DNA of 17,600 bases from Octopus sinensis (taxonomy: Eukaryota), in NCBI RefSeq assembly GCF_006345805.1, contig NW_021824637.1, positions 1 through 17,600 of the forward strand. Reading direction: 5' to 3'. Of this stretch, positions 1 to 17,600 are shown piece after piece. Each line of letters begins with the position of its first letter. Positions within the stretch are counted from its first letter, which is position 1. The notes below the pieces were generated by a model. It was not told where the DNA came from. It searched no databases and saw only the letters and a list, made by a program, of their open reading frames with translations. A program made the position numbers and the translations under genes.

Positions 1-88
<88 letters not shown>

Positions 89-122
89 AGTAAAAATACT
101 GGATGGATAGATAGATAGATAT

Positions 123-153
<31 letters not shown>

Positions 154-645
154 TATAGATAGATAGATAGGTAGGTAGGTATATATATACACATATGTAC
201 ATAGACACTGTTACATATATGTATATACACATACAATGTTGCATATTATATATGTGTGTGTGTGTGTATACGTGTGTTTGTATTATGTATGTATGCGTAT
301 ATATATGTGTATATGTGTTGGTGCGTTTTTTATACATATGCCTGTATATATATAGATATAGATATAGGTATAGATATAGATAGATAGATATTGTGAATAT
401 ACTTATTTAAACATACTTATGCGCACACAGTCATACACACGCATGCATACATACATATAAGATATATATATACATACATATATATATAAAATATATCTAT
501 ATATATATATTATATATAATATATATATATATCAGCATATACATACATACATACATACGTACATACGTACATCGTACGTACATACATACATACATACATG
601 CATACATACATACATACATACATACATACATACATACATACATAC
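1..645. repeat. Compound microsatellite block (TA)n, (GATA)n, (TG)n, (TACA)n
   Basis: Directly visible pure and interrupted tandem tracts; explains ORFs 195..383, 510..719 and 532..726. Confidence 0.97.
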
Positions 646-977
646 ACGCACGCGTGTGAGAGGATTGTGGATGGTTGGATGGGTGTATAAACGAAAAAGA
701 ATTTCAGTATTGTGTACACATACCAAAATATGTAGATTAATATTTCGAAGATATATCCTGACTGCTGCTGCTGGTTGTTTTTTGGTTTTTTTTTTTCAAC
801 CCCAAATCCTCCATCTTTGATCTAGAAACCTTATGATCAAAAGCATTCCAGCGGTGACCTTTCTGCCTTTTTTTTTTTTTTTTTTTTTTTTAACTTCTAT
901 AGACAAGTGGACTTTTCTAGTAGAGATATGAAATGGGTTCGGCTGTTCTTTCTCGTTGGTCGAGCAACTGTCTAAAG

Positions 978-1108
978 CAAAGATTCTCAACCGCGGTCCA
1001 CATGATCTTTTGGGGAGTGGGGGATGTCATTATAAAATTTTGTTATTAAAATTTGTGCAATAAAAAGCTTATACGTTTACAATATACAAAATTTTTTAAT
1101 ACAATTAC
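978..1108. mobile_element. hAT-like MITE, one end only; inverted homologue of the right part of the 11927-12431 element
   Basis: Starts CAAAGATTCTCAAC (resembles the CAGTGGTTCTCAAC hAT/Charlie-type TIR), preceded by GTCTAAAG (close to the NTCTAGAN hAT target). The body ATTTTGTTATTAAAA..TGCAATAAA..TTATACGTTTACAATATACAAAATTTTT aligns to the reverse complement of 12075-12100 plus 12324-12431. Confidence 0.65.
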
Positions 1109-1117
1109 TGGCTTACA

Positions 1118-1324
1118 CTTCTACTTGTTTCAGTCATTTTGACTATGGCCATGCTAGAGCACCACCTTTTCATCAAAGAAATTGACCCCTTGTCTTATTC
1201 TTTGTAAACCTGGTACTTATCGTATCGGTTTCTTTTGCTGAACCGCAATGTTACGGGGATGTAAACACACCAAAATCGGTTGTGTGTGTGTTGGGGGGGG
1301 GGTGGACAAACAGACAAAAACACA
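1118..1324 (-). mobile_element. 3' half of a SINE (family A)
   Basis: Homologous to 2131-2259 (TACTTGTTTCARTCATT..GGCCATGCT..GACCC..GTACTTAT..TTTCTTTT..GAACCGC). On the minus strand it carries a GATA..ATAAGTACCAG..GGGGTCAAT module like the SINEs at 4196-4966. Confidence 0.7.
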
Positions 1325-1384
1325 AGCCAGTACTGAGGAGTTGTAAACGACCAGTAGCCTAGTAAATCAACCCTGGGACCTAAT

Positions 1385-1647
1385 AAAGATAAAGGATTAT
1401 TATACTTCCCAAGTCATATAGACTCATGGGGCCCGGCTCTCAGTTCCCATGGCACATATATTCTCCTCGCTTCAGGATGGGATGCCCATCTGTCACAGGG
1501 TTACTGGTTTTTGCTAGATGAGCGGACTGAAGCGATGTGAAATAAAATGCTTTGCTCAAGAACACAACACGGTGCCTGATCCAGGAATCGAAACCACAAT
1601 CATAGGATTATGAGTTCAACAGCCTAACCACTAAGCCACGCGCCTCC
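1385..1647 (-). mobile_element. tRNA-derived SINE (family B)
   Basis: Minus strand begins GGAGGCGCGTGGCTTAGTGGTTAGG (A box) then GGTTTCGATTCC (B box), followed by a CORE-like TGTGTTCTTGAGCAAAGCATTTTATTTCAC and a tail AACCCTGTGACAGATGGGCATCCCATCC. Confidence 0.85.
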
Positions 1648-2130
1648 CTACTAAGCCATCTTTGAAGCCTAGTCAACGAGTTCTAAAGTTTAGTAAACCA
1701 CCAGGCGAGGCCTTGCGAACCAGCGCAGAAGCTTCATAAATATTCGCTTTTGGAAACATGTGTCGCACTAAGCTCAAAGTGTTTGAAGAAGAAGTGAGAG
1801 ATTGAGAGGGAGATAGAGAAGATGGAAGGACATTGATGCGGCACGATTTAACGAAGCATTGATGCATGTCTTTACACGTGTCAGAAGCACTCATGCATGC
1901 GTTTCATGCTGTTTCCCTCGGGGAAAACTTCCAGGTTTTGCTGGCTCACATTACGTAGATACAGTTACGGTTGAGCAACAACCTAGAAAGTAGTAGTGAC
2001 ACATTAACTACTTTCACTTCTCGTTTAGATAGGAAAAGGGATTTGTTGGGGACGCATAAAGGACAAATCAACGAATACTTTGAATGATTTAAAAGCGATT
2101 GGAAGAAAAAAATACAAGACAATCTGTTAA

Positions 2131-2259
2131 CTTTTACTTGTTTCAATCATTGGCCTGCGGCCATGCTGGGGTACCCATCTAGGAGGGTTTAGCGGAGCAA
2201 GTCGACCCAAGTACTTATTCCATCAGTTTCTTTTACCGAACCGCTACGTTGTGGAAACG
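2131..2259 (-). mobile_element. 3' fragment of SINE family A
   Basis: Clear local homology to 1118-1260. Confidence 0.7.
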
Positions 2260-2267
2260 CAATCGGA

Positions 2268-2467
2268 TAGTGATGGTAATGGTGATGGTGAAGGTAGTAG
2301 TGGTGATTGTCGTGTTGCTGATGGTGGTGGTGGTAGTTGTGATGGGAGTGGTGGCTATCGTGGTTTGTGGTGATAGTGATGGTGGTGATAATGATGGTGA
2401 CGGCGGCGGCGGTGGTGGTGGTGGTGATGGTTTTGGTGGTTGTGGTAGTTTTCGTGGCAGTGGTAAC
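2268..2467. repeat. Degenerate (GTG/GAT)n trinucleotide low-complexity tract
   Basis: Visible GGT/GAT triplets; source of the His/Thr/Val-rich ORFs at 2189-2494. Confidence 0.9.
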
Positions 2468-2598
2468 CATCGCATATTATATGTTCAGACATAGTATATC
2501 TACCGTGGCCTAAATTATTCCGTGTCTTGTCTGTATGTATGTATATATATATATTTATGTGTATGTTTATGTATGTGTCTTTGATAAATTCCGATATA

Positions 2599-2939
2599 GT
2601 GGAACTTCGTTGGTTGCGACGACGAGGGTCCCAGTTGATCCGATCAACGGAACAGCCTGCTCGTGAAATTAACTTAGAAGTGGCTGAGCACTCCACAGAC
2701 ACGTGTACCCTTATAACATAGTTCTCGGGGAGATTCAGCGTGACACAGAGTGTGACAAGGCTGGCCCTTTGAAATACAGGTACACCAGAAACAGGAAGAA
2801 AGAGTGAGAGAAAGTTTTAGTGAAAGAGTACAGCAGGGCTCGCCACCATACCCTGCCGGTGCTCCGCGGAGATTTAGGTGTTTTCTTTCAATAAACACTC
2901 ACAACGCCCGGTCGGGGAATCGAAACCGCAATCCTACGA
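2599..2939 (-). mobile_element. tRNA-derived SINE family C, 5' truncated, tail type 1
   Basis: Minus strand GTAGGATTGCGGTTTCGATTCCCCGACCGGGCGTTGTGAGTGTTTATTGA..CCCTGCTGTACTCTTTCAC..TTTCTCTCACTCTTTC matches the bodies at 7143-7330 and 17085-17260. The A box is missing and the copy abuts a TA tract. Confidence 0.85.
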
Positions 2940-3037
2940 TTATATATATATATAATTAATAAATATTAGGGTAGGAAACATTTTTAGAAATTGTTTACTA
3001 CCAGTGGCCTAGCATGTAGAAAACTACACATGCATAA

Positions 3038-3190
3038 GATGGGCTTCTTTCAGTTTCCGTCTACCAAATCCACTCACGAGATTTTGGTCGGCCCGAGGCT
3101 ATAGAAGACACTTGCCCAAGGTACCACGCAGAGGGACTGAACCTGGAACAATGTGGTTGGTAAGCAAGCTACTTACCACATAGCTACTCC
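3038..3190 (-). mobile_element. tRNA-derived SINE 5' head (probably family A)
   Basis: Minus strand GGAGTAGCTATGTGGTAAG (A box), GGTTCAGTCCC (B box), then a CORE-like CCTTGGGCAAGTGTCTTCT. Confidence 0.8.
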
Positions 3191-3274
3191 TTTGTCTAAG
3201 TTTAATATAAATATATATACATTCATGCATATATACGAACACACACACATGTATCCATGTTTGTATGTGTGTAC

Positions 3275-3346
<72 letters not shown>
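3275..3346. repeat. (GATA)n microsatellite
   Basis: Pure tract. Confidence 0.98.
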
Positions 3347-3347
<1 letters not shown>

Positions 3348-3546
3348 TACAGTCATACTGATATTCTTGTATACACATGCACATGATCCTGGGGCTGGAG
3401 TTAAACTAATACAACACGTGCTCGGTTGAATATTTGGGGAGGCGTTGATGGGACGCTGCGTTTGATTAGACCGGATGTGGGATGGGTTCTAAAGCGGAAG
3501 GAAGATCTCTGCTCTTCTCTTGTGACACAGACACACGCGCGCGTGT

Positions 3547-3583
<37 letters not shown>

Positions 3584-3956
3584 TGCCGCGCACGCGCTCA
3601 CACACAAATGTAAATAAATCCATGCAGGTGACCTCGACAGTTTTGTTTATCCTTGACCTTTCCATTTCCCAATCCACCTACGACCACCCGTCGACAAGAC
3701 CTCCGACAAGCACAACGAAAGTCACCATATGCTCCCTCTGCTTGTTTTTATTGAAAACATTAAAAGGAACGACAATAAAAAAAAATAGCACAAAAGTACG
3801 AAGTTTTACCTTTTCTTTTTTTTTCCTTTTTTTTTTACGTATAGCGCCCTCGGAGAACGGTGCGCTCGTATAACCCGTCAAAGTGCGTCAAAATGAAGGT
3901 GGCCTCGGAAACCACTTCTGACTCTCTGGCTGCTGTCACTTTGTCTGTTTATCCCC

Positions 3957-3958
3957 CT

Positions 3959-4012
<54 letters not shown>

Positions 4013-4057
4013 TCCTCTCTCTCTCTCTCTTTCTTTCTCTCTCTCTCTCTTTATCTC

Positions 4058-4110
<53 letters not shown>
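3957..4110. repeat. (CT)n microsatellite
   Basis: Interrupted CT tract; source of the SLSL ORF. Confidence 0.97.
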
Positions 4111-4113
<3 letters not shown>

Positions 4114-4195
4114 AGAATCTAATGTTTTCAACTCATTCCATAACGTAATTTTTTTTTCTCCCTCCAAAAATTATTATTCTATATATTGTTTTATT

Positions 4196-4409
4196 TAAGG
4201 CGGCGAGCTGGCAGAAACGTTAGCATGCTGGGCGAAATGCCTACGGTATTTCGTCTGTCTTTATGTTCTGAGTTCAAATTCCACCGAGGCCGACTTTGCC
4301 TTTCATCCTTTCAGGGTCGATAAATTAAGTACCAGTTGCGTACTGGGGTCGATCTAATCGACTGGCCCCTCCCCCAAAATGTCGGGCCTTGTGCCTAGAG
4401 TAGAAAAGA
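4196..4409 (+). mobile_element. Full-length tRNA-derived SINE family D with 15-bp TSD
   Basis: Head GGCGGCGAGCTGGCAGAAACGTTAG, B box GAGTTCAAATTCC, central GCCTTTCATCCTTTCAGGGTCGATAAATTAAGTACCAG (resembles the MetaSINE domain, from memory). Perfect direct repeat ATATATTGTTTTATT at 4181-4195 and 4410-4424. Confidence 0.9.
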
Positions 4410-4425
4410 ATATATTGTTTTATTA

Positions 4426-4966
4426 AAGGCAGAATATTGTCAGAATCGGTAAAACGCTGGTCAAAATGCTTTGTGGTATTATCTGTTCTGAGTTCACTTC
4501 CTACCGAGGTCAACTCTACCTTTCAATCTCTTGAGTACCGTTCAAGTGCTCAGTACCATAAAATCGACTGGCCTTGTGCCTGTTTTAGAAACAATTTCAT
4601 TACAGCATGTTGGATTGGCAATATCGTTGGAGCATCGGAAAATTACTTGTATCATTTTTTACAGCTCTTTACATTCTGAGTTCAAATCCCGCCGAAACTA
4701 ACTTTGCCTTTTCTTTTTTCCTTCCGGAGTCGATAAAACAAAGTACCAGTTAAGTACTGAGGTCGATATTATCGACTAACTCTCTACATTCAGTATTGTT
4801 GGTCTTGTGCCAAAATTAAAAAGAATTATTATTAACGTTACCTGTCATCCTTTCGGGGTCAATAAATGAAGTACCAGCGTTTCACTGGGGTCGATGTAAC
4901 TGACTCGTCCCCTCCCTACAAATCTCAGGCCTTGTGTTGTGCCTTTAGAAGAAAGGATTATTATTA
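4426..4966 (+). mobile_element. Three further diverged family D SINE copies in tandem (about 4426-4595, 4603-4833, 4841-4966)
   Basis: Repeated TTCTGAGTTCA, AAGTACCAG, GGGGTCGAT and CCTTGTGCC..AGAA modules in the same order and orientation as 4196-4409. Confidence 0.8.
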
Positions 4967-5099
4967 GCATTTTTGTAGAGGTAGTTTGGGTTCCATGGAA
5001 CGGAAGCTCTAGCCATCGCACCCCCTTTTTTTACAGACACTTTATCTATAATTACAACATTCAAAGTGTCTGTGTTTTTACGAAAGAAAGGATAAAACT

Positions 5100-5305
5100 A
5101 CGGAGATGTACTTGCATAGCAAGTGACCTGATCTGAGATCGTGTGCTAGAACGAAAACAATTGCAGCGTGAGAGGTGTTTATAAGCCATTTAAGAAACAC
5201 ACAAAAACCGTTAGATTTACTTCAACATTTAAATTTAATTTGCCAACATATTTTCGTCGCTTTGAGACCGCGACCTGTTCACTGACAAAATTCCGTGATG
5301 CATCT
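5100..5305 (-). mobile_element. Putative Penelope-like element terminal-repeat fragment containing a hammerhead fold
   Basis: Non-simple segment carrying the minimal hammerhead architecture at 5239-5289 followed by an AT-rich tract. Boundaries are approximate and the PLE assignment is inferred from the motif. Confidence 0.5.
5239..5289 (-). ncRNA. Minimal type I hammerhead ribozyme-like motif, G3:C8 core variant
   Basis: Minus strand reads UUUGUCA (stem I), GUGAACA (core), G, GUCGC-ggucucaaa-GCGAC (stem II), GAAA, AUAU, G, U, UGGCAAA (stem I'). Confidence 0.6.
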
Positions 5306-5329
5306 GAGAAAGTAACAGATTGTTCATGA

Positions 5330-5615
5330 TATATATGTACGCATCTATGTGTGTATGTATGTATGTATGTATGTATGTATGTATGTGTATCTTTGTATGT
5401 ATGCATGTATGTGCGTGTGTATGAATGTGTGTGCACATGTATGTGCCTATGCATATGTGTGCATGTATGTATGTATGTATGTATGTATGTATGTATATAA
5501 GTATTACATATATGTACATATGTGTGTACATGAGTATTTAGGTAAGTGTGTAGACGTGTCCGTGTGTGTGTGTACATGTGTATGTACATGTGAACGTATG
5601 TTTATGTACTGATAT
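5330..5615. repeat. (TATG)n/(TG)n compound microsatellite
   Basis: Visible tracts. Confidence 0.95.
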
Positions 5616-6135
5616 GTGTCTGATAAAACTGCTTCTGTATTTTGTTTGCAAGACTTTTCATGTAAGGCCGTGAGTTGAAAGAGATGTTGTTTCACGAAGG
5701 TTTATTATACTAATAATAAACACACGCACTGATTCGATTTCACTTCTTTATTATCCGTCAATTGGTTAGCTATTTAACCAATTAAACGAAACGATTTTTT
5801 TGGTTAATTTTTCGATTAATTAACCAATTAGCTGCGTTTTTGTCAACATCCGTTCGTCGCCGAAGGCATGTCATTCAAAAAGGTCACGAATGGCAATGAA
5901 AAGACTTTGGCAAGCACGACTGGTTGATTGATAAACCGAATCAAGCAATCGATTTTTACTAGATAGAAATATACAAGAAAACAGAGTGATTTTGGTCATG
6001 GATGAAGCGCCGTGCTTTTATCATAATTCGTGTGAGATTGAAGCTGATCTAATGCAACACAACGCGTCAGTAGTGTCAACCATGTTGAATGAGACGTGAT
6101 TAGTTGGACTGAGTTGAGAATAGTTTCTATCTGAT

Positions 6136-6672
6136 AGTGGTGGTGGTGGTGGTGTTAGTAGTGATGATGGTGGTCATCATGGTGGTGATAGCAGTGGTGG
6201 TGATGTGATAGTATTGGTGTTAGCGATGCTTGTAGTGGTGTTGGTGTTAGTGGTGATGTGATAGTAATGGTGTTAGCGATGCTGGTGGTGGTGGTGGTGG
6301 TGGTGTTAGTGGTGATGATGGTGGTCCTCATGGTGGTGATCGTAGTGGTGGTGATGTGATAGTAATGGTGTTAGCGATGCTGGTGGTGGTGTTAGTGGTG
6401 AAGATGGTGGTCCTCGTGGTGGTGATCGTAGTGGTGGTGATGTGATAGTAATGGTGTTAGCGATGCTTGTGGTGGTGGTGGTGGTGGTGGTGGTGTGTTA
6501 GTGGTGATGATGGTGGTCCTCATGGTGGTGATCGTAGTGGTGGTGATGTGATAGTAATGGTGTTAGCGATGCTGGTGGTGGTGGTGGTGTTAGTGGTGAA
6601 GATGGTGGTCCTCGTGGTGGTGATCGTTGTGGTTGTGATGTGATAGTAATTTTGTTAGCGATGCTGTTGTTG

Positions 6673-6704
<32 letters not shown>

Positions 6705-6708
6705 GGTG
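6136..6708. repeat. GTG-based minisatellite, about 6 units (mostly 86-106 bp, one shorter)
   Basis: Recurring GGTGATGTGATAGTAATGGTGTTAGCGATGCT anchor with variable (GGT)n; CCTCRTGG marker at 6326, 6412, 6518 and 6610. Confidence 0.92.
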
Positions 6709-7142
6709 GAAAGGCAACGTTCTAAAAATGAGCACCGTATCCAAGAGGATATTTGTTCTTGGTTTGGAGCTTGAAGAGATCTTATTCCCAGAAGGATCCC
6801 CAACAAAGTAAAACAACTTCACGCCAATTTGTTCCACTTTCTACAACAGCTGTTACACTTACCGGAGACATTGATGACCCACCTGTTGTTGACTCTGTCA
6901 CTCCTCAGTCATACTTCACTTGTAATAGTGGGATATAATAACCAGTGGAGTATCATAACTAAGCTAATTACTAATGATGTGTTAGCATACTTAATTTTAA
7001 CCCCGCCCCTCACATCAAGGGCGTCCCGTCTATTATATGAATATGAAATAAAATAGCTATTTACAATGTCAGCTTTCCCTTTTTACATCCGTCGACGCTA
7101 AATAATCTCACAAAATTAATATTCATATCTACAATATAATAA

Positions 7143-7443
7143 GTGGAGGCACATGGCCTAGTGGTTAGAGCAGCGGACTCGCGGTCAAGGGATCGCGGGT
7201 TCGAATCTCAGACCGAGCAATGTGTGTGTTTATGAGCGAAACACTGAAACTCCACGCGGCTCCGACAGAAGGTAATGGCGAACTTCTGCTGACTCTTTCA
7301 CCACAACTTTCTCTCACTCTTTCCTCCAGCATCTTGTAGTTCACCTGCGACTGACCGGCCTCCCGTCCTGATGAGGAACCTATACGCCAAGGAAACCGGT
7401 CCTATTAGCCAGGTGTGACTCGAGAAGGAACAAACAACAACAA
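7143..7443 (+). mobile_element. Full-length tRNA-derived SINE family C, tail type 2, 12-bp TSD
   Basis: GTGGAGGCACATGGCCTAGTGGTTAGAGC (A box), GGGTTCGAATCTC (B box), (CAA)n tail. Perfect direct repeat ACAATATAATAA at 7131-7142 and 7444-7455. Confidence 0.92.
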
Positions 7444-8119
7444 ACAATATAATAAACAAAGTTGCTTATTAATTAGTTTGGAGTATGTAACCTTTACAAC
7501 AAATAAGCAAATATTAGAAAACTCCTATAAATGCTAATTTTGATATATTTTTATCAAATGTGATTTTCGAATTATTTTACTACCAAAAATTTCAACTTCA
7601 CGATTCAATCACAAAAATAATTTTTATTCAGTGAAACAGTGTCATCCTACACCGAGAAATAGCGTTTTTTTTTTTGTTTGTTTGTTTCTGGAAATACATA
7701 AAAGTTCCTCAAATATTTGCAACCTTAATTTGTACAGATAAGTCAGTAAAAGCATTTCTCCAACTGCTAGCAAAATTATGTTGATTTCCAGTGTCCTTTC
7801 TTATTTGTTGGGTGCTGTTGAAGACGGTAAACAGAGGACTTACTTATACGCGGCTAAGTTAACATAATACGATAGCTTCTTAAATTCTAACGCTGTCTTT
7901 CAGTGACTGAGGACTTTTAGACGAATAAACGACCCAAAGAAAAGTTAGAAATAACACATCAGACAAATTACACAGATTGGGGATCAAACGTATAAATTTC
8001 ATCTTGCGACCAGTAGAAAACCGCCCGGGGGCGGTCTTTCTGCTAGTGTTTCACAAAGTTGCGTGATATTTACTGCATTTTCTGTTATTCTGTTACTGTT
8101 TATCGAGTTCAAAATGCAA

Positions 8120-8357
8120 TGTGCGTGTGCGTGTATAAATGCTTACATATATATTTGTGTACGTGTAAGTGTATATACAAATTCACACACACATATTTGT
8201 ATGTATACCAGTATATATGTACATATATGTGCGTATTTATGCATAAATCTCTCTTTTATATATCTTGCATGTAGGAAGAGAGAGAGAGAGAGAAAGAGAA
8301 AGAGAGAGACAGAGACATAGACAGAGAAATACATAATACATGCATTTATACATGCAT

Positions 8358-8392
<35 letters not shown>
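8120..8392. repeat. Mixed TG/TA, (GA)n and (CA)n microsatellites
   Basis: Visible tracts. Confidence 0.9.
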
Positions 8393-8394
<2 letters not shown>

Positions 8395-8484
8395 ATGTAA
8401 AGCAAAGTGTTAGTCACCGCGGTATCAATGTTGGACGGAAGACATTGATACCAAATACTTTATATGATTACGATGAAATAATAA

Positions 8485-8660
8485 AAGCGGGTAATTTGTA
8501 GAAATTACTACAGTATTCTGATTTCCCTGCTGATATTCACGTCCTGAGTTCACTCCCTACCGAGTAAGCTATGATTTTCTTCTCTTTCTGATCAATAAAT
8601 CAAACTACGAGTGAAGTAATAAGACCCTTTTAATCGGCGACTAAACCTTCCACAAAATTG
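8485..8660 (+). mobile_element. Highly degenerate SINE family D copy
   Basis: CACGTCCTGAGTTCACTCCCTACCGAG matches 4485-4508; weak remnants of GATCAATAAATCAAACTACGAG and CGACTAA. Confidence 0.5.
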
Positions 8661-9259
8661 AGCAGATTTCGATGACTTCTACAACGTAACAGAATTGTGC
8701 ACATCACCAGCAACCTACATATCTATGCAGATCAGACATATGTCCAATCAACATTTTCTCTTAACAAAAAAAAAACAATTTTTTAAGTCAAAATATTAAA
8801 ATATAAATCAAAAAGATAAGCAGTTGTTTACATTTTTCATTTTAACCAACTTGGATTCTTGTAATTTTCTAGAACAATTATTCAGATTCTAACCGCAATT
8901 TTAATTTCATGGAGATAACTTGTGATAAACTCACAATATATTCATGTTATAATCTTTTTGATATATAACTGCTTCCCCAACACATCACTAGACTTTTTTT
9001 TGTTGTTGTTTAGGGATGCTGAAAAGATAAAATTTACAGTACAAAACCGACAACAGCCGACGAATTGAGGGTACTCATTGAACGAGAACGAAATGTGTCT
9101 TGTTTGCGATTCCATTGTTTCGCATTATTAGCAATGCCTGGACCAAAACAAGTCATCAGTTTGCAGATAGTCCTTCATGAAAAAACAAAAAAAAAAAAAA
9201 TGAAATTCTCTCCGTAGATTCTAAATAATTTTGAAAATAAAACGTGTCATATATATATA

Positions 9260-9780
9260 CCGTAAATCCTCGAGTATAATCCGCATTTTTTTCCCAAAAT
9301 TTAAAGGTCAAAATCCCTAGTGCGTACTATATACGAGGTTAAAAATGAAAATTATTTTCTAAGCAATGTCCGAGTCTCTATTTTGCTGTCTAGCATTGCT
9401 TATTCAGACGCATTTTGGGATGTCGGGCGCGAAAATACCTTAAGCTAAGCTTGAAAGCAATGAAGTCATAAAAGAATCATCCATAACTTGCAGTAAGCAA
9501 CATTTATTAAACGTTATTACTGTTATTGCCGTTATTTCTTTATTTTCTGAAAACAAAATGCACAAAAAAGCTACACGTTTGCATTATGTTATATATACAA
9601 TAATAATAAAGTACGTTACCGTATACATTTTTAAAACCAAGGACGTTATATAGACCTCCTTGATTCAAGTTAGAGAAGGGGTGCGTATTATACACAAGGT
9701 TTAGGTTTTTCAGAGGTACAGCCCCCTAAAAATCCCCTGCATATTATACTCAAGGGCGGACTATACTCGAGGATTTACGG
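9260..9780. mobile_element. Tc1/mariner-superfamily (Tc2/pogo-like) MITE, 521 bp
   Basis: 25-bp TIRs CCGTAAATCCTCGAGTATAATCCGC (9260-9284) and GCGGACTATACTCGAGGATTTACGG (9756-9780) match 24/25. Flanked by TA on the left and TG on the right. No transposase ORF. Confidence 0.9.
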
Positions 9781-9782
9781 TG

Positions 9783-10263
9783 TACATACATACATACATA
9801 CATACATACATACATACATACATACATACATACATACATGTATACATACATAAATATATATATATATATCGACGATTACGATATATGCGTGTGTGTGCGT
9901 GTGGTATATGTGTGTCACGTTTCATTCCATTACACAATCGTTCTATATCGATAGCTACTCTTACATACATACACGCAGCTCACATAGATGCTCATATCTA
10001 CATACACATACACACGTATGTATGCATGCGTGTATAATATATGTATGTATGTATGTATGTATGTATCTATGTGTGTCAATATATATGTATATAACCACAC
10101 ACACACACACGTTTGCAGTCAATTTATCAAGGCTGTTCCAATCTATGAGACTCGCCTTGAGCAGAATAAATTGGTTTAGCTTAATCTAATGTTGCTAAGC
10201 TAAGGGAAGAAACATTTTGCATAGGCTGATGTGTGTGTGTCTATACACACACAAACACACACA

Positions 10264-10301
<38 letters not shown>

Positions 10302-10653
10302 TGTTGTTGCTGTTGCTATTGTTGTTTTTTGGTGTCTTTTGTTAGCTACTTCTCTCACCTGTGTTCCATCTGCTCTTGTTAGCAGAGCTGTGCTATTTAT
10401 CGCAAAGTCTGTAGCCGGATTCCTATAGTGTATCAGTGTGTGTGTATGTGTATGTGTGTATGTGTGTGTGTGTGTGCGTGCGTTCGTGCCTGCGTGTGTG
10501 TACGCACGCGCAATATAGAAAGTTATCTTATCCAAATATACGCACCGACATACACACGAACGCGTGCATACACACACACGCATTATATATGTTCGTTTGT
10601 GTGCGCGCTCGTTCGCGCGTTTATATATATATTTATATACATGTATATGCATA

Positions 10654-10731
<78 letters not shown>

Positions 10732-10801
10732 CATATATATATATATACATACATATATATATATTATATATATATATATATTATATATATATATATATAT
10801 A

Positions 10802-10832
<31 letters not shown>

Positions 10833-10866
10833 GTAAATAATGGCACAACGAAGCACCGATATATAT

Positions 10867-10905
<39 letters not shown>

Positions 10906-10945
10906 AGCCAGCTTACAGAAGGTTAACAGGTGTGGTATATATATG
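9783..10945. repeat. Long compound microsatellite region (TACA)n, (CA)n, (TG)n, (TA)n with short unique spacers
   Basis: Visible tracts; explains the ORFs between 9761 and 10968. Confidence 0.93.
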
Positions 10946-11129
10946 AGTGTGTGCAGGCGCATGCGCATGTGTGCATTTTTGTCGTTAATGGATCCGATTC
11001 GTCTGTCAGAAGTATAAAAAGCCGGTAATGGTATCTTATGTGAAAGGTAAGAAAGCCATCAGAAGAGGGGCGGGAATATAAAGGCAATGAATTGGTGTAT
11101 ATCTCTAAATGTATTTGTATCTGTATGTC

Positions 11130-11133
<4 letters not shown>

Positions 11134-11172
<39 letters not shown>
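11134..11172. repeat. (GA)n microsatellite
   Basis: Pure tract. Confidence 0.97.
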
Positions 11173-11176
<4 letters not shown>

Positions 11177-11364
11177 TTGAGTGAGAGAGGGAGAGAGTTG
11201 AAGGGAGAGTAATTTATTATTGAGAGAAAAAGTGAAAAGAGAGGATGGGATGGGGGAAAGTGAGGGAGAGAAGAAATGGAATCTTTAAGAACATCGTACG
11301 ATTGCAAACAATGCACAATAACTTATAACCGTGTTGCTCCAGGATGAATCAAATATTTATAGAC

Positions 11365-11657
11365 AGGCTTTGAGATTGCTAGAAATAGCAGCCAAGTCTC
11401 CTTCAAATTGTACTCTACTGTCTTGAAAGAAAAATGTCCAGTGTTGTCATGATTGCGTAATAGTCTCTGAGCCTGCAAGAAACAGTAGCCAAATTTCTGT
11501 CGAATTGTACTCTACAATCTTGAAAGAAAAGAACCTGATGCTGTCTTGAATACATAATAGTCTCTGAGCCAGCTAGAAACAGCAGCCAAATCTTTTTCAA
11601 ATTGTACTCTACCATCTCGGAAGAAAAGAGCTCAGTGCCATCATGTATACATAATGT
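11365..11657. repeat. Tandem repeat, 97-bp period, 3 diverged copies
   Basis: AGAAAYAGYAGCCAA..AATTGTACTCTAC..TCT..AAGAAAA starts at 11381, 11478 and 11575. Confidence 0.9.
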
Positions 11658-11926
11658 GGTCCCAGGTAAAGCAGTACACGGGGAACTTGTGTTCATTTAT
11701 TGCCAGTAAACTACACTATACGTAGATTATAGATTATCTCTCACCCTCTTGACTAGTTGGCTCGAGGACCAACTTCTCACTGTGCCCTTTTTTTGAAATA
11801 GCTCTAGTGGGAGACATAAGATTATGTAGACCTATGTATTCGTTGCCAAAGAGAAGACCGAGATATTCACGGTTCCAACATAACTGATCAGAGGTTTGCA
11901 CAGTCAGGACTGGCTTTGAACTAAAC

Positions 11927-12431
11927 CAATGTTTTTCAACTATTTTTTTTTAACATATGGACACCTCTGATTTTTTTTATTCGGGTGGGCCCTCCTAACG
12001 ATTCGATATACATAAACATGTCCAGTTATATTTTTATGATTAAGTATTATTAGGGAACTATATAAGAAAACAAGTGATAAAATTTTTTGTATATCGTAGC
12101 AGTGGGAAATGGTGAAGTGGTGACCGGTAATAAAGTCACAGTAATAAAGTCACAATTGTGGCTAGGAAAAAAGTCATAGGAAAAAAGTCACAATTAATTT
12201 ATGGGATCCGGACAAAACCGCACCGAACAATCCCACTATGGACAAAACCCCTGTGACTTTTTTCCTGCGACTTTTTTTTTTTCCTGTGACTTTCTTACCT
12301 GTGACTTTTTTTTACCTGGATTCTGTAGAAGTATAACCAATTTATTGCATTTTAGCAGCAAAATCTGATATGGACCCCCAAGGGCCTTATGGACACCGAA
12401 GGGTCATATTGACCCCAGTTGAGAACCACAG
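11927..12431. mobile_element. hAT-like MITE interrupted by a nested insertion
   Basis: Degenerate 14-bp TIRs CAATGTTTTTCAAC (11927-11940) and GTTGAGAACCACAG (12418-12431). 8-bp flanks AACTAAAC and TGCTGAAC match 5/8. Subterminal ATGGAC(A/C)CC repeats. Confidence 0.7.
12104..12323. mobile_element. Foldback/Mutator-like non-autonomous element
   Basis: Left arm has four AAAGTCAYA units and right arm four inverted TGYGACTTT units. A 9-bp flank TGTAGAAGT (12324-12332) has 7/9 matches at 12095-12103 and at 12110-12118. Confidence 0.7.
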
Positions 12432-12664
12432 TGCTGAACAGTAGTAGTAGCAGCAGCAACACCGATTGTTATGAATATCTCCAATCTGCTTAATGGCACA
12501 TCGTGCCAATTGCAACATGTTTTATGATTTGACATTAAAGTACCACCGGTCGTCAACCGCGATGCAGTACTGGTCGGTAACCTGCGCATGTTTTGCCTCA
12601 TGGTTACAGGTACTAATATAGTCGTTAACAGACGTGGACGACCTCTTGTCCCCTTTGCTCTTAA

Positions 12665-12826
12665 CCCTTTGCCCGTCCAGTGTACAACGTGTGATGCACA
12701 AGTCATATTTTCCGGACGTCCATGCATCATATATGACGCACATTACCAACGTTTGTTCAACGTCCAGAGAAACTCGAGACATATGAAAGGAAGGCTTTAT
12801 ATTATTCATAATATATGAAACAAGGG
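12665..12826. mobile_element. piggyBac-like MITE, 162 bp
   Basis: TTAA-CCCTT ... AAGGG-TTAA termini (TTAA at 12661-12664 and 12827-12830). Internal near-perfect palindrome TGCATCATATATGACGCA with a degenerate second copy upstream. Confidence 0.6.
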
Positions 12827-13024
12827 TTAACTACATGTCTGAAGAGAAGCATGGACCTTTAAGACAAACTTTTGAAAATGTTTTGGACAGGCAAAAAGTT
12901 AACCAAGTGGAACGTCTAGAATATAACAGGTGGAGAAGGGAAAGAGGGAGAGAAAGAGAGAGAAAGAAAGAGGGAGAGAGAGGGGAATGTTTTATCAGTA
13001 ACCGATAAGTACTTACTGTAGGTG

Positions 13025-13128
13025 ATTAAACTGAAGTAGCGTGAAATGAAGTGCCTTCCTCAATTCCTGGACCCTACGTTACGGCGCCTCGGAATTAAAC
13101 CCATGACATCATGAACATGAAGCGAGCA
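13025..13128 (-). mobile_element. Degenerate SINE family B fragment
   Basis: ACTGAAGTAGCGTGAAATGAAGTGCCTTCCTCAA..GGAATTAAACCCATGA aligns with 1526-1612. Confidence 0.55.
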
Positions 13129-13262
13129 GGAGGCGATGTGCCTTCATCCGTTGATTTAAAAAATGTCGAAACACAACAAAAAAAAACAACCTTATGGTGA
13201 AGTGGTTAAGAGCGCGGGCTACTAACCCCAAGATTCCGAGTTCGATTCCAGGCAGGGACCTG

Positions 13263-13339
13263 AATAATAATAATAATAATATAATAATAATAATAGTAAT
13301 AATAATGATGATGATAAAATAGTAATAATAATGATGATA

Positions 13340-13384
<45 letters not shown>

Positions 13385-13395
13385 TAATAATAATA

Positions 13396-13428
<33 letters not shown>

Positions 13429-13510
13429 TTGATAATCATAATAATAATAATATAATAATAATGATGATAATAATATAATAATGATAATAATAATAATGAT
13501 GATAATAATA

Positions 13511-13541
<31 letters not shown>

Positions 13542-13547
13542 TAATAC

Positions 13548-13579
<32 letters not shown>

Positions 13580-13581
13580 TA
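13263..13581. repeat. (TAA)n microsatellite with TGA variants
   Basis: Visible tract. Confidence 0.97.
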
Positions 13582-13634
13582 AAAACTTCGAAAAATACCT
13601 TAGGAAGCAGAACCCAGGTTCGACATTTCCCCAA

Positions 13635-13680
13635 GACACCCGATGAAGGCTGGAGGGTATATCAGCCGAATCGTTGTGTT
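13635..13680 (+). ncRNA. Minimal type I hammerhead ribozyme-like motif (two core substitutions)
   Basis: GACAC (stem I), CcGAUGA (core), A, GGCUG-gaggguauau-CAGCC (stem II), GAAu, C, GUU, GUGUU (stem I'). Confidence 0.65.
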
Positions 13681-13852
13681 AACAACAAACAAGATGAGGA
13701 CAAATATCCGTCAAATGTATATAACGTAAATAATGAAAACAAAACCTTTGTCTAAATATAAAATAACACGCTGTTTCCAGAAAAGTAGCGCAAGCGAATG
13801 CAAGGGCCCAGTCTTCAGCAGCATGCTGATTTTGTATTGTTCACTTACCTGT

Positions 13853-13932
13853 CAACCTACCTACCTATCTATCTACCTATCTATCTACCTATCTATCTAT
13901 CTACCTATCTATCTACCTATCTATCTATCTAC

Positions 13933-13994
<62 letters not shown>
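13853..13994. repeat. (CTAT/CTAC)n microsatellite 5' of the LINE
   Basis: Visible tract. Confidence 0.97.
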
Positions 13995-14537
13995 GTTCGG
14001 GACGACTTCGGGCCAGGCCCATGGACCACTTCCAGAGATCCCTGCCTGCAGTGCTACCGAGAAGCGCTACCCGTCGGGATAGCTCTACAGACACGGCTCG
14101 AGAAACACGGGGCCGACCTGCCCGAGATGCGGTCAGAGCGACGAAACCGTTCTGCACGCACTCGTTCAGTGTCCAACAATTTCCGACCTGTGGGCTTGTG
14201 TCGAACAACTGCTGTCACGTGTGGGGCGAGTCGGTTTATCAGCTGAGTCTATCGTCAATATTGTCACGCCTCCTTCCTTCAAACGGGAAGGAAGAGCTAT
14301 TTTCATCGTCCTGTGGGCTATGGCGAAAGAATGTATCTGGTGGACGCGTCTGAAAGGATTGGAGACAAACACTTTCCTCTCTGGTCAATCTCTCATCAAC
14401 TTCTTCAAGTACCACTTGAAAAGGAAAGTGAGAGTAAGAGGCAAGTTTTGTCTAGCGAATGTTTTAAAAAAAGATGGGTGAATGTAGCAAGAATGGCACG
14501 TATGAATGACGAAGCCACCTTGAGCATAGTCCTATGA
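13995..14537 (+). pseudogene. Frameshifted LINE ORF2 C-terminal zinc-binding (zf-RVT-like) region
   Basis: Joining frames gives [73 protein letters not shown]. The C-x2-C-x8-H-x4-C motif is at 14119-14172 and is followed by the IWxxR motif typical of L1/Tx1 ORF2. At least three frameshifts. Confidence 0.85.
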
Positions 14538-14907
14538 CCCAGAAATCGAAAACAGAGAGTGCTTATTTGCAAAAAAAAAAAAAAAAAAAAAATAAAATGT
14601 GACTTCATTGACCGAGGTTACCGTGGTCTTTTCCGTAGGCTTTTCTTTCCACGGGTAAACCTCACCTGTCCTCCCTTTACACTTCATATTGACATTTCTG
14701 TGATAACGATCCCTATTTGATCATTATTGTTTCCTCTCCCCTTTTTTAACCCCCCCTTCTTTTTATCCTCTTTCTCTCCTTTTACGATCCCTTTTGATCG
14801 AAACTCCCCCTTCCTTTTTTTTTTTTTTTTTTTAAACCTTCAAAAGAAAAGCTCTACCTTGTAATTTGTTCTATCTGTGTGCAGCCCTGTGTGGCTAATA
14901 AAGAAAC
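13995..14907 (+). mobile_element. 5'-truncated L1/Tx1-clade LINE (ORF2 C-terminus plus 3' UTR)
   Basis: Coding remnant to the stop at 14537, an internal A-run at 14571-14592, a pyrimidine-rich UTR and terminal AATAAAGAAAC running into (TATC)n. Confidence 0.85.
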
Positions 14908-15007
14908 ATATCTATCTATCTATCTATTTACCTGTCTGCATGTCTGTCTGTCTGCCAGCTTGTCTACCTCTGTTCGTACCTACCTACCTACCTACCTTTC
15001 TATCAAC

Positions 15008-15050
<43 letters not shown>

Positions 15051-15118
15051 CCTATCTATCTATCTATCTATACGTACACACATATCTACACACATACAGA
15101 CAAACATATATACATAGA

Positions 15119-15156
<38 letters not shown>

Positions 15157-15172
15157 TGTGCGTGCGTGCGCG
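14908..15172. repeat. (TATC/TACC/TGTC)n then (TG)n microsatellites
   Basis: Visible tracts. Confidence 0.95.
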
Positions 15173-15467
15173 CAAATATTTGTAACTGTATGAGTATGTG
15201 CGTGCGTATATGCGTGAGTGGTTTTATCTTTACTTACAGAAAGAAGAGAAGAGCGGGCGAGATCCGAGCATTCTCAGGTATTTAATAACTGTAGCCAACA
15301 GGTAGATGCGTCTATCTTCTGAGTTATAACATTATAATGAGGTATGCTTTATGACGTAAAATGATGAGCGGATTTATGAGTTCTAACATCATCGTAAAAT
15401 TTATGAGCATAAATTATCATACAATTTATGATGACACATCGTAACATTTATTTTATGCATACACACG

Positions 15468-15539
15468 CATATATATATATATGATATAAATATAATATAT
15501 AATATATATTTAATATATATATATATATTATATATATAT

Positions 15540-15586
<47 letters not shown>

Positions 15587-15725
15587 CATATATATATATA
15601 TATATATTTCGGAATGGTCATTTTGCCAGTTTAGCCAATAAAAAATCTTGCACAAAACACAAATATTTAAACGTATATATATATATATATTATATATATA
15701 AACATGCATATAATATATATTTATC

Positions 15726-15772
<47 letters not shown>

Positions 15773-15807
15773 ATGCATATCTATATATATATCATATATA
15801 TATATTA

Positions 15808-15835
<28 letters not shown>
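15468..15835. repeat. Interrupted (TA)n with a short unique island at about 15607-15672
   Basis: Visible tract. Confidence 0.93.
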
Positions 15836-15838
<3 letters not shown>

Positions 15839-15977
15839 TATTGCTGTTGTTGTTGGTCACTGTAACCTGAGATTCTTGAACAGGTGGCTTTGCTTTCATG
15901 GCGATCACAACTCACGTGCATTCACACTGCCTAATTACACAATAATGGAGAAACGAATGAACGTTTACCTTATTCCT

Positions 15978-16178
15978 ATTTCTTTATTGCCCACAAGGGG
16001 CTAAACATAGAGGAGACACAAATAAGGACAGACAAACGGATTAAGTCGATTACATCGACCCCAGTGCGTAACTGGTACTTAATTTATCTACCCCGAAAGG
16101 ATGAAAGGCAAAGTCGACTTCGGTGGAATTTGAACTCGGAACGCAACGGCAGACGAAATGCCGCTAAGCTCGCCGCCC
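15978..16178 (-). mobile_element. SINE family D variant with alternative tail, head deletion and 13-bp TSD
   Basis: Minus strand GGCGGCGAGCTTAGCGGCATTTCGTCTG..GAGTTCAAATTCCACCGAAGTCGACTTTGCCTTTCATCCTTTCGGGG matches 4196-4360. Flanking TTACCTTATTCCT (15965-15977) and TTACCTTACTCCT (16179-16191) match 12/13. Confidence 0.9.
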
Positions 16179-16918
16179 TTACCTTACTCCTGTGAACGGA
16201 CAGGCGATCCGTCCTTCCGGATAGTTGTGGATGTTTCCACTCGTAACGCTTTTACATATGCATAATATATATATATATATATGTATGTATATGTATTCTA
16301 GTTTCTCGGAAATCTCTCATTCCGTTGGGATATTTTGTTTTTAGTTTGCTGTAAGTTCGTTGTGTTGTTTTTTAGGATTTGCTTGTGCGCAACTATATTA
16401 CCTTCACTCGTTTGTACAAGTGTTCATCGACTTACCACCCACGCTGATACATACCTTCATACCATCATGGAATTTTACATTGAGTGCTTTGCCTTTCATG
16501 ACTATAGCCAGCCATACTATGCAACACAACGAAGATGTTAAAAACCAAGAAATACCTGAGCTGGAAGCTTTTTAAAGTGAGGAAAGGCCTTGAACAGAGC
16601 CAATCCTACTCTCTAAATAACGTATATGTTTGCTCAAAAACGAACTAATCTACATCATTTGATGCAAAGGAAGTTACAGGTGTTAATTCTGTGTTTTCCT
16701 TCTCCTAAGGATATACCTAAACAAAACTTAGGGGTCTCTCACTTCCAGCTGTTAGATGACAGTTGACTGGTTTTGTTTTCCCAATCCTGCAGAGTGTCCA
16801 AAGAAACCAGGTCTCCTCACCAATTAGGCTTGACATGGTCACTGATTAAGTCACTAACTGCACGACCATACGTCACGTTGTACTGGGTTACATGTTACCA
16901 GTACAGCTAAGAGTCACC

Positions 16919-16956
<38 letters not shown>

Positions 16957-16958
<2 letters not shown>

Positions 16959-17260
16959 CATGTAATCACGTGACCGACCAGACCATCAGATGTTACTACA
17001 CATCGCTGGTCACACTGCGTTCGCATTGTTTTAGCCTGCGAATGACGCCACCCGCTAGCTAAGCGAGCAGGCCAACAGAAGAAGATGAGAGAAAGAGTGG
17101 TGAAAGAGTACAGCAGGGATCACCACCCCCTGGCCGAGCCTCGTGGAGCTTTTAGTGTTTTCGCTCAATAAACACTCACAAACGCCCGTTCTAGGAATCG
17201 AAACCACGATCCTACGACCGCGAGTCCGCTGCCCTAACCACTAGGCCATTGCGCCTCCAC
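16957..17260 (-). mobile_element. Full-length tRNA-derived SINE family C, tail type 3
   Basis: Minus strand GTGGAGGCGCAATGGCCTAGTGGTTAGGGCAGCGGACTCGCGGTCGTAGGATCGTGGTTTCGATTCC, near-identical to the head at 7143. Lies between (TA)n and (CA)n tracts. Confidence 0.9.
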
Positions 17261-17307
17261 ACACACACACACACACACACACGCACGCACACACACACAC
17301 ACACACA

Positions 17308-17357
<50 letters not shown>
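17261..17357. repeat. (CA)n(TA)n microsatellite
   Basis: Visible tract. Confidence 0.97.
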
Positions 17358-17600
17358 TGATTTGAACACCCTACTAGAATGGGAGAAAGCGCTAATGATC
17401 TCAGTGATATGATATATATGTAAAAAATGTAATATATAAATAAATATCTGTAAATATAAACCATTCGATCTTCTGATTACCTCTTTTCTTCTAATATATA
17501 TATATAACTGTATATAATATATATAATGATATTTATTCTCCGATTTTGAAGCGACATACATACATGAAGAGATGGCGGCGTGAATTTCCACTCGGCATCC

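Follow-up and report, generated by a model that had tools for sequence, protein, structure and literature searches.

The unit at positions 13193 to 13735 of the window (viz. the whole stretch of Octopus sinensis DNA that was analysed, comprising 17,600 nucleotides, positions 1 to 17,600 of the forward strand of contig NW_021824637.1) is almost certainly a terminal repeat of a Penelope-like element (PLE). Its best explanation, which we regard as probable, is that it represents a solitary and decayed pseudo-LTR (pLTR) of the Penelope/Poseidon type, whose tRNA-derived head likely acted as a Pol III promoter setting the 5' end of the element's RNA. A first-pass annotation of this DNA had described here an A box, an anticodon-like arm, a B box, a trinucleotide tract and a hammerhead-like motif, and inspection of the sequence agrees with it on the location of all of these parts (Table 1).

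Table 1. Features of the window copy, with positions in the window.
Feature	Position	Strand	Remarks
Possible left target-site duplication	13182..13193	+	10/12 bases agree with 13737-13748
tRNA-derived head of pLTR	13193..13262	+	begins some 4-5 nt inward of the tRNA-like +1
A box	13195..13205	+	2 changes from the family majority, consensus still met
Anticodon-like arm, 3 bp	13216-13228	+	
B box	13238..13249	+	same as family majority
(AAT)n tract	13263..13580	+	107 units, 86%; expanded here; likely 5' UTR
Tail	13582..13735	+	likely start of PLE reading frame; holds the hammerhead
Candidate start codon site	13606..13608	+	ATG in family majority, lost in window copy; from alignment and frame homology
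Minimal type I hammerhead motif	13635..13680	+	core damaged at 13641 and 13671; predicted cut 13675/13676
Stem I	13635-39/13676-80	+	
Hammerhead core	13640-46	+	U4C at 13641; extra A at 13647
Stem II	13648-52/13663-67	+	
GAA	13668-70	+	A15.1U at 13671
Possible right target-site duplication	13737..13748	+	pairs with 13182..13193

The A and B boxes of the head match the general consensus of such boxes, while the tRNA stems and the cloverleaf are broken. No tRNA was called by ARAGORN in the window copy or in 8 other copies, nor was a hammerhead called by Rfam in the window copy or 8 other copies; ARAGORN runs on the head at a relaxed score were likewise negative. Because these programs call neither part in the window, the evidence presented below rests on the family. 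The host tRNA genes closest to the head are those for Arg(TCT) (50/76 positions) and Cys (48/74), among 20 genes sampled from 6 isotypes, Ser not being one of them. At L221:930-1051 lies a tRNA-like head that is related to this one (83% over 52 nt) and shares its inverted 5' junction, but the 3' sequence behind it is different and has a CUGAUGA-like motif; this is possibly a sister family. The window copy itself is a solo copy, not part of an inverted pair, and its tail belongs to the short 3' class, without an extension of about 30 nt that other copies carry. Its AAT tract may be compared with those of the family, which have a median length of 47.5 nt and a 90th percentile of 243.5 (n=108). 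The flanking match listed in Table 1 is only suggestive of a target-site duplication, as its score is 6, the threshold is 8, and 4/210 mismatched flank pairs also reach 6. The statement of the first-pass annotation that this copy carries the U4C and A15.1U changes and is probably inactive is borne out, both changes being present, and because of these two core changes and the loss of the candidate ATG the copy is very likely dead. Directly downstream of it lie a (CTAT)n tract (13857-13994) and then another interspersed repeat (~13900-14700), and the remainder of the window consists mainly of microsatellites and common repeats.

If head, tract and tail had merely come to lie next to each other, viz. 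if a tRNA-derived repeat and the end of a PLE had met by chance within an AAT tract, then heads and tails should mostly be found apart. Searches of the octopus genome with the head and the tail gave many copies of each, at 92-97% identity. In 60 fixed-position stretches of 10 kb (600 kb in all), 4/4 heads have the tail downstream, and among loci picked by the head the tail is present in 27/29 (two of the 29 being duplicates), which is the co-occurrence that the first-pass annotation had proposed to measure. Of the tails in the same 600 kb, 4/9 have a head and 5/9 do not, and the latter number is what chance adjacency has in its favour; however, the headless tails are 5'-truncated or inverted partial arms. 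With the linkage described above, and with the order of the parts behind the gene (see below) being fixed, chance adjacency is refuted and may be given next to no probability. The head, the (AAT)n tract and the tail are one high-copy unit. Exact 20-mers occur 1,073 times just upstream of the head, 4,938 times in the head and 11,590 times in the tail, counts which depend on the decay of each 20-mer, and the reversed 20-mer controls for head and tail gave 0 occurrences; allowing for decay, we estimate the heads of the genome at about 13,000 and the tails at about 30,000. Before counting, the locus of the window itself and loci that were duplicates (L001, L031, L026, L051, L321, L359, L392) were omitted.

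The partner of this unit is a coding PLE. When heads were extended upstream, the stop codon of a GIY-YIG frame was found 29 nt upstream of the tRNA-like +1. A complete GIY-YIG gene end is present in 23/30 protein-picked loci, and directly behind it lie the head in 18/23 and the tail in 19/23, so that the earlier description of the tail as Penelope-like and the expectation of RT and GIY-YIG frames beside it are both upheld. One example is L391, in which a 551-aa frame with RT and GIY-YIG parts is followed by head and tail. This frame is 56% identical to its full-length homologue P0004 (847 aa), which matches RVT_1 (E 5.7e-11), as do other homologues of the L391 frame; a Pfam search with the decayed natural copy gave no match. 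The GIY-YIG domain of P0004 falls under the cut-off (E 0.23), and the GIY-YIG motif was read by eye, as were the marks of the Penelope/Poseidon clade (viz. a DKG motif and no CxxC linker seen before the endonuclease). The translated tail is identical to residues 15-59 of P0004 at 19/46 positions (pairwise E 4e-4), which suggests that the reading frame likely begins in the tail, which would then encode the N-terminus of the gene. As the unit stands behind the stop of the gene and its tail likely encodes the N-terminus of the same gene, it is interpreted as a pLTR. The 5' join between the pLTR and the ORF would follow from one homologue and from analogy with PAc (Poseidon_Ac of Anolis); among 107 arms bearing the extension, none runs from the tail on into an ORF, and in a pattern search 1/22 long homologues carries the motif.

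Hydra-like and several Neptune-like PLE families were also considered as the partner and were rejected, since they lack the tail (the clade labels here being a reading of motifs). The Neptune-like family at L281-L284 (e.g. L281:2032-4374) is very young, its open frames measuring 781 aa and many of its copies scoring equally, and a scan found no hammerhead tied to it. The PLEs at L151-L170 are Hydra-like; their open frames reach 960 aa and their linkers are rich in Asn, and L162, L166, L167 and L169 carry a hammerhead of a distinct kind, in which the link has 8 nt.

The manner in which the copies are inserted also bears the marks of PLEs. Of the 235 arms, 140 are in inverted pairs with their 3' ends outward, and the extension of about 30 nt is present on exactly one arm in 62/70 pairs (p 5e-12; 35/39 in the first set). 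The 3' ends fall into two classes, at tail positions 138-161 and 177-185; a T4 terminator directly after the extension was dropped as a candidate, being present in 2/107 arms. It is the shorter arm that bears the extension in 29 pairs and the longer one in 22 (11 ties), and for the former 29 a simple fold-back of one cDNA is ruled out. Target duplications of about 12 nt flank 20/38 inverted pairs, as compared with 0/224 mismatched flanks. Inverted pairs, an extension on one arm and target duplications are all described as PLE features (PMC8557442). Further, 29 variants are common to both arms, against 6.0 +/- 2.4 in shuffled pairs, although gene conversion could also be a source of such sharing. 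The simplest reading of the pairs is that they reflect two priming events on one RNA, with nicks on both strands. However, clear duplications at solo copies were seen in 1/20 and 0/15 in two sets, and none is clear at the window copy; solo copies without a duplication of about 12 nt are unaccounted for by this model, and they are perhaps resolved or rearranged pairs.

Taken as a mechanism, the pLTR reading would work as follows. The reading frame of the next unit would begin in the tail, and the element's own enzyme would nick both strands of the target. Reverse transcription would then be primed at two internal sites that are separated by some 30-35 nt, the template probably being a single uncleaved RNA. 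If the cDNA is primed in the 5' repeat, it would run off the 5' end of the RNA and give short SINE-like copies, and if it is primed in the 3' repeat, gene-bearing copies would result. For PAc, two internal RT starts, nicking of both strands, an ORF start within the pLTR and a hammerhead whose cleavage is unneeded have been reported (PMC11167929). The many inverted pairs of octopus lend genomic support to priming at two start sites on both strands, which has so far been seen in vitro, for PAc.

In regard to the hammerhead, the first-pass annotation had proposed that restoring two bases would give CUGAUGA and GAAACGUU, and the majority of 83 tail copies reads exactly so. Stems I and II are predicted with pair probabilities of 0.69-1.0, and the family majority folds as the minimal hammerheads of metazoan PLEs do, in the dimer type, its catalysis being putative. 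Among copies chosen without regard to their likeness to the window, which have a mean divergence of 5.4%, the core is intact in 28/59 and U4C is present in 2/59. If the RNA of the family were excised by this hammerhead and then reverse transcribed, as in a retrozyme, then the ends of the insertions should fall at the cut. The intact, dimer-type core of the majority agrees with such an origin, as does the derivation of non-LTR retrozymes from pLTRs (bioRxiv 10.64898/2026.07.22.740005). However, positions within 3 nt of the cut account for 0/233 3' ends and 2/60 internal 5' starts, which largely refutes it for the insertion ends; the copies are mostly single or inverted and not in tandem arrays; and the core positions have decayed like the rest (4.8% vs 5.1%), the stems alike, so that no extra conservation of the core is seen among the copies. 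A retrozyme-like element is therefore very unlikely, and the proposal of the first-pass annotation that the element processes its own RNA by cleavage is not upheld. Self-cleavage does not set the insertion ends, and the hammerhead is carried along; since the ends do not fall at the cut site, the inserted copies appear to derive from uncleaved RNA, as has been reported for PAc.

In PAc the ORF begins inside the hammerhead (PMC11167929). The full-length homologues P0004 and P0121 have at their N-termini peptides that resemble a translated hammerhead core, and it thus looks as if other lineages, too, can have the ribozyme within a coding sequence. Another abundant family (L245, L269, L283, L114, L192) has the same hammerhead layout with the extra A and a 4-nt link after GAAA, and in several of its copies the core reads CUGUUGA or CUGUGGA.

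The possibility should also be weighed that the short copies serve as Pol III source genes in their own right, viz. a true PLE-dependent SINE that spreads with a Poseidon-type enzyme supplied in trans. Short copies starting at the head outnumber gene-linked ones by about 3.5 to 1 (55 vs 16), and they keep the A and B boxes and are without a T4 run, as such a SINE would. However, in a comparison of about 100 copies, the majority base of the short copies agrees with that of the gene-linked ones all along the tail, and their divergence is similar (5.4% vs 4.9%, p = 0.28); nominal differences at 16 tail positions are mostly deletions in gene-linked copies, and none of them shifts the majority. Due to the identical majority bases and the similar divergence, it looks as if the short copies were produced from the RNA of the PLE itself. 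Further, PAc requires RNA reaching about 55 nt past its RT start site (PMC11167929), and if the same holds in octopus, where reverse transcription starts inside the tail, then the RNA of the short copies would lack this part. A PLE-dependent SINE is hence improbable, and the suggestion of a SINE-like element that had borrowed a PLE tail gives way to a different view, in which the head belongs to the terminal repeat of the coding PLE itself.

For the pLTR reading, the remaining question concerns the origin of the 5' boundary. Among 71 head-bearing copies, chosen solely by a 20-mer of the A box, 55 start within -9..+8 of the tRNA +1, as compared with 4.9 expected (p 2e-49) from the upstream truncation rate, which is derived from only 14 events. 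The loss of 20-mers per base is also about 5 times higher across the head boundary. Since the starts pile up at the head, and the A and B boxes are kept while the cloverleaf is broken, we infer that the boundary marks a defined 5' end of the RNA, likely a Pol III start. The boundary of the same PLE repeat could instead have arisen by an RNase P cut in tandem read-through RNA, by a Pol II start, or by stalling of the reverse transcriptase at a hairpin at +1. The internal promoter of Penelope and Chlamys is a Pol II promoter. Such origins would accord with the commonest start being exactly +1 (13/72), with the 5-bp palindrome that spans -7..+5, across which 21/71 copies are joined to an inverted head, and with the location of an internal promoter in the 5' region of Penelope and Chlamys (PMC8557442). 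However, a head that is no longer a cloverleaf should be a poor substrate for RNase P, and yet both promoter boxes are kept; and the pile-up remains in 36/50 copies after the 21 joined to an inverted head through the hairpin are removed. Taken together, an origin of the boundary other than by Pol III is rather unlikely. RNA reads from three runs (about 6% of each) are equal on both strands and track the profile of genomic copies, and they show no pile-up of starts or ends, with part or all of the head masked by the skipping of repeats. Loose ends beyond the extension have no common continuation (agreement 0.41-0.51). Due to the equal strands, the copy-like profile and the hidden head, these reads are uninformative in regard to Pol III.

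A tRNA-like Pol III promoter is normally found in non-coding parasites such as SINEs. A bolder extension of the pLTR reading is that the whole coding PLE is transcribed end to end by Pol III from the captured tRNA promoter, and that this RNA is also the source of the tens of thousands of SINE-like copies; judged from sequence, this may be entertained only tentatively. No T4 run is present in the majority sequence of the ORF (1,653 nt, without its 5' part), the spacer, the head or the tail, whereas 3-20 such runs are present in 9/9 natural copies of other PLE families of this genome, which are single copies and not majorities. Codon shuffles of the ORF give 1.8 T4 runs on average as the expectation (P = 0.11), and in L391, a natural copy, there are 2. 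The T4-free majority of the ORF is no more than a hint of Pol III transcription of the whole element, and an uncapped Pol III RNA would require another route to translation.

Among known systems, the closest are the Penelope/Poseidon PLEs, especially PAc, which likewise has a single frame with RT plus a GIY-YIG at the C-terminus, the DKG motif and no CxxC linker seen, and in which a hammerhead overlaps the ORF start within the pLTR and no ends fall at the hammerhead cut (PMC11167929). Also shared with these PLEs are the optional tail of 30-40 nt on one end and the inverted, 5'-truncated partner (PMC11167929; PMC8557442). The octopus pLTR differs from these elements as described in that it opens with a tRNA-derived A/B-box head and (AAT)n, and of the copies extending as far as this head, most begin at it. 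The hammerhead resembles the minimal type I hammerheads of metazoan PLEs in its short helix I, the unpaired base before stem II, the lack of a stable helix III, and a palindrome that permits a dimer fold, and these too are often single or on opposite strands, 100-700 bp apart (PMC4209133). However, stem II has 5 bp here and 7-8 bp in the Schistosoma families described there, and the link to a tRNA-like head is seen here. The SMalpha repeat of Schistosoma and non-LTR retrozymes are similar as short SINE-like repeats with a type I hammerhead and a pLTR-related origin, but in retrozymes the units stand in tandem and hammerhead cuts form their bounds, which is not so in the octopus family (PMC8490949; PMC7229834; bioRxiv 10.64898/2026.07.22.740005).

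With tRNA-derived SINEs, the family shares an A/B-box tRNA-like head, a length of about 300 nt and a very high copy number. Repeat annotation would likely give the short copies the wrong label of tRNA SINEs. Ohshima and Okada reportedly described tRNA-derived SINEs of octopus in 1994. However, a SINE forms a lineage separate from its partner and shares with it only the 3' end, whereas here the partner holds head, tract and tail; the head is common to an autonomous element, the 3' end is neither an A tail nor a LINE tail, and the insertion marks are those of PLEs. Our literature searches found no description of a PLE with a tRNA-derived head, although the family may be contained in Repbase, in the 1994 description of octopus SINEs, in the octopus genome paper or in the supplements of PMC8557442. 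Cassandra, Helenus and Ajax also have a Pol III promoter derived from a small RNA in their terminal repeat, but these are non-autonomous LTR elements, whose coding partners are argued to need Pol II (PMC10886601), whereas in octopus it is the coding element itself whose repeat carries the head. PLEs as such are known, as are the hammerheads and the inverted insertions that go with them, but a coding PLE whose terminal repeat has a head derived from a tRNA may be new. If true, the presence of a Pol III-type promoter in a retrotransposon that codes for protein would make SINEs and autonomous elements harder to tell apart, and it would show one route by which a PLE-dependent SINE could be born.
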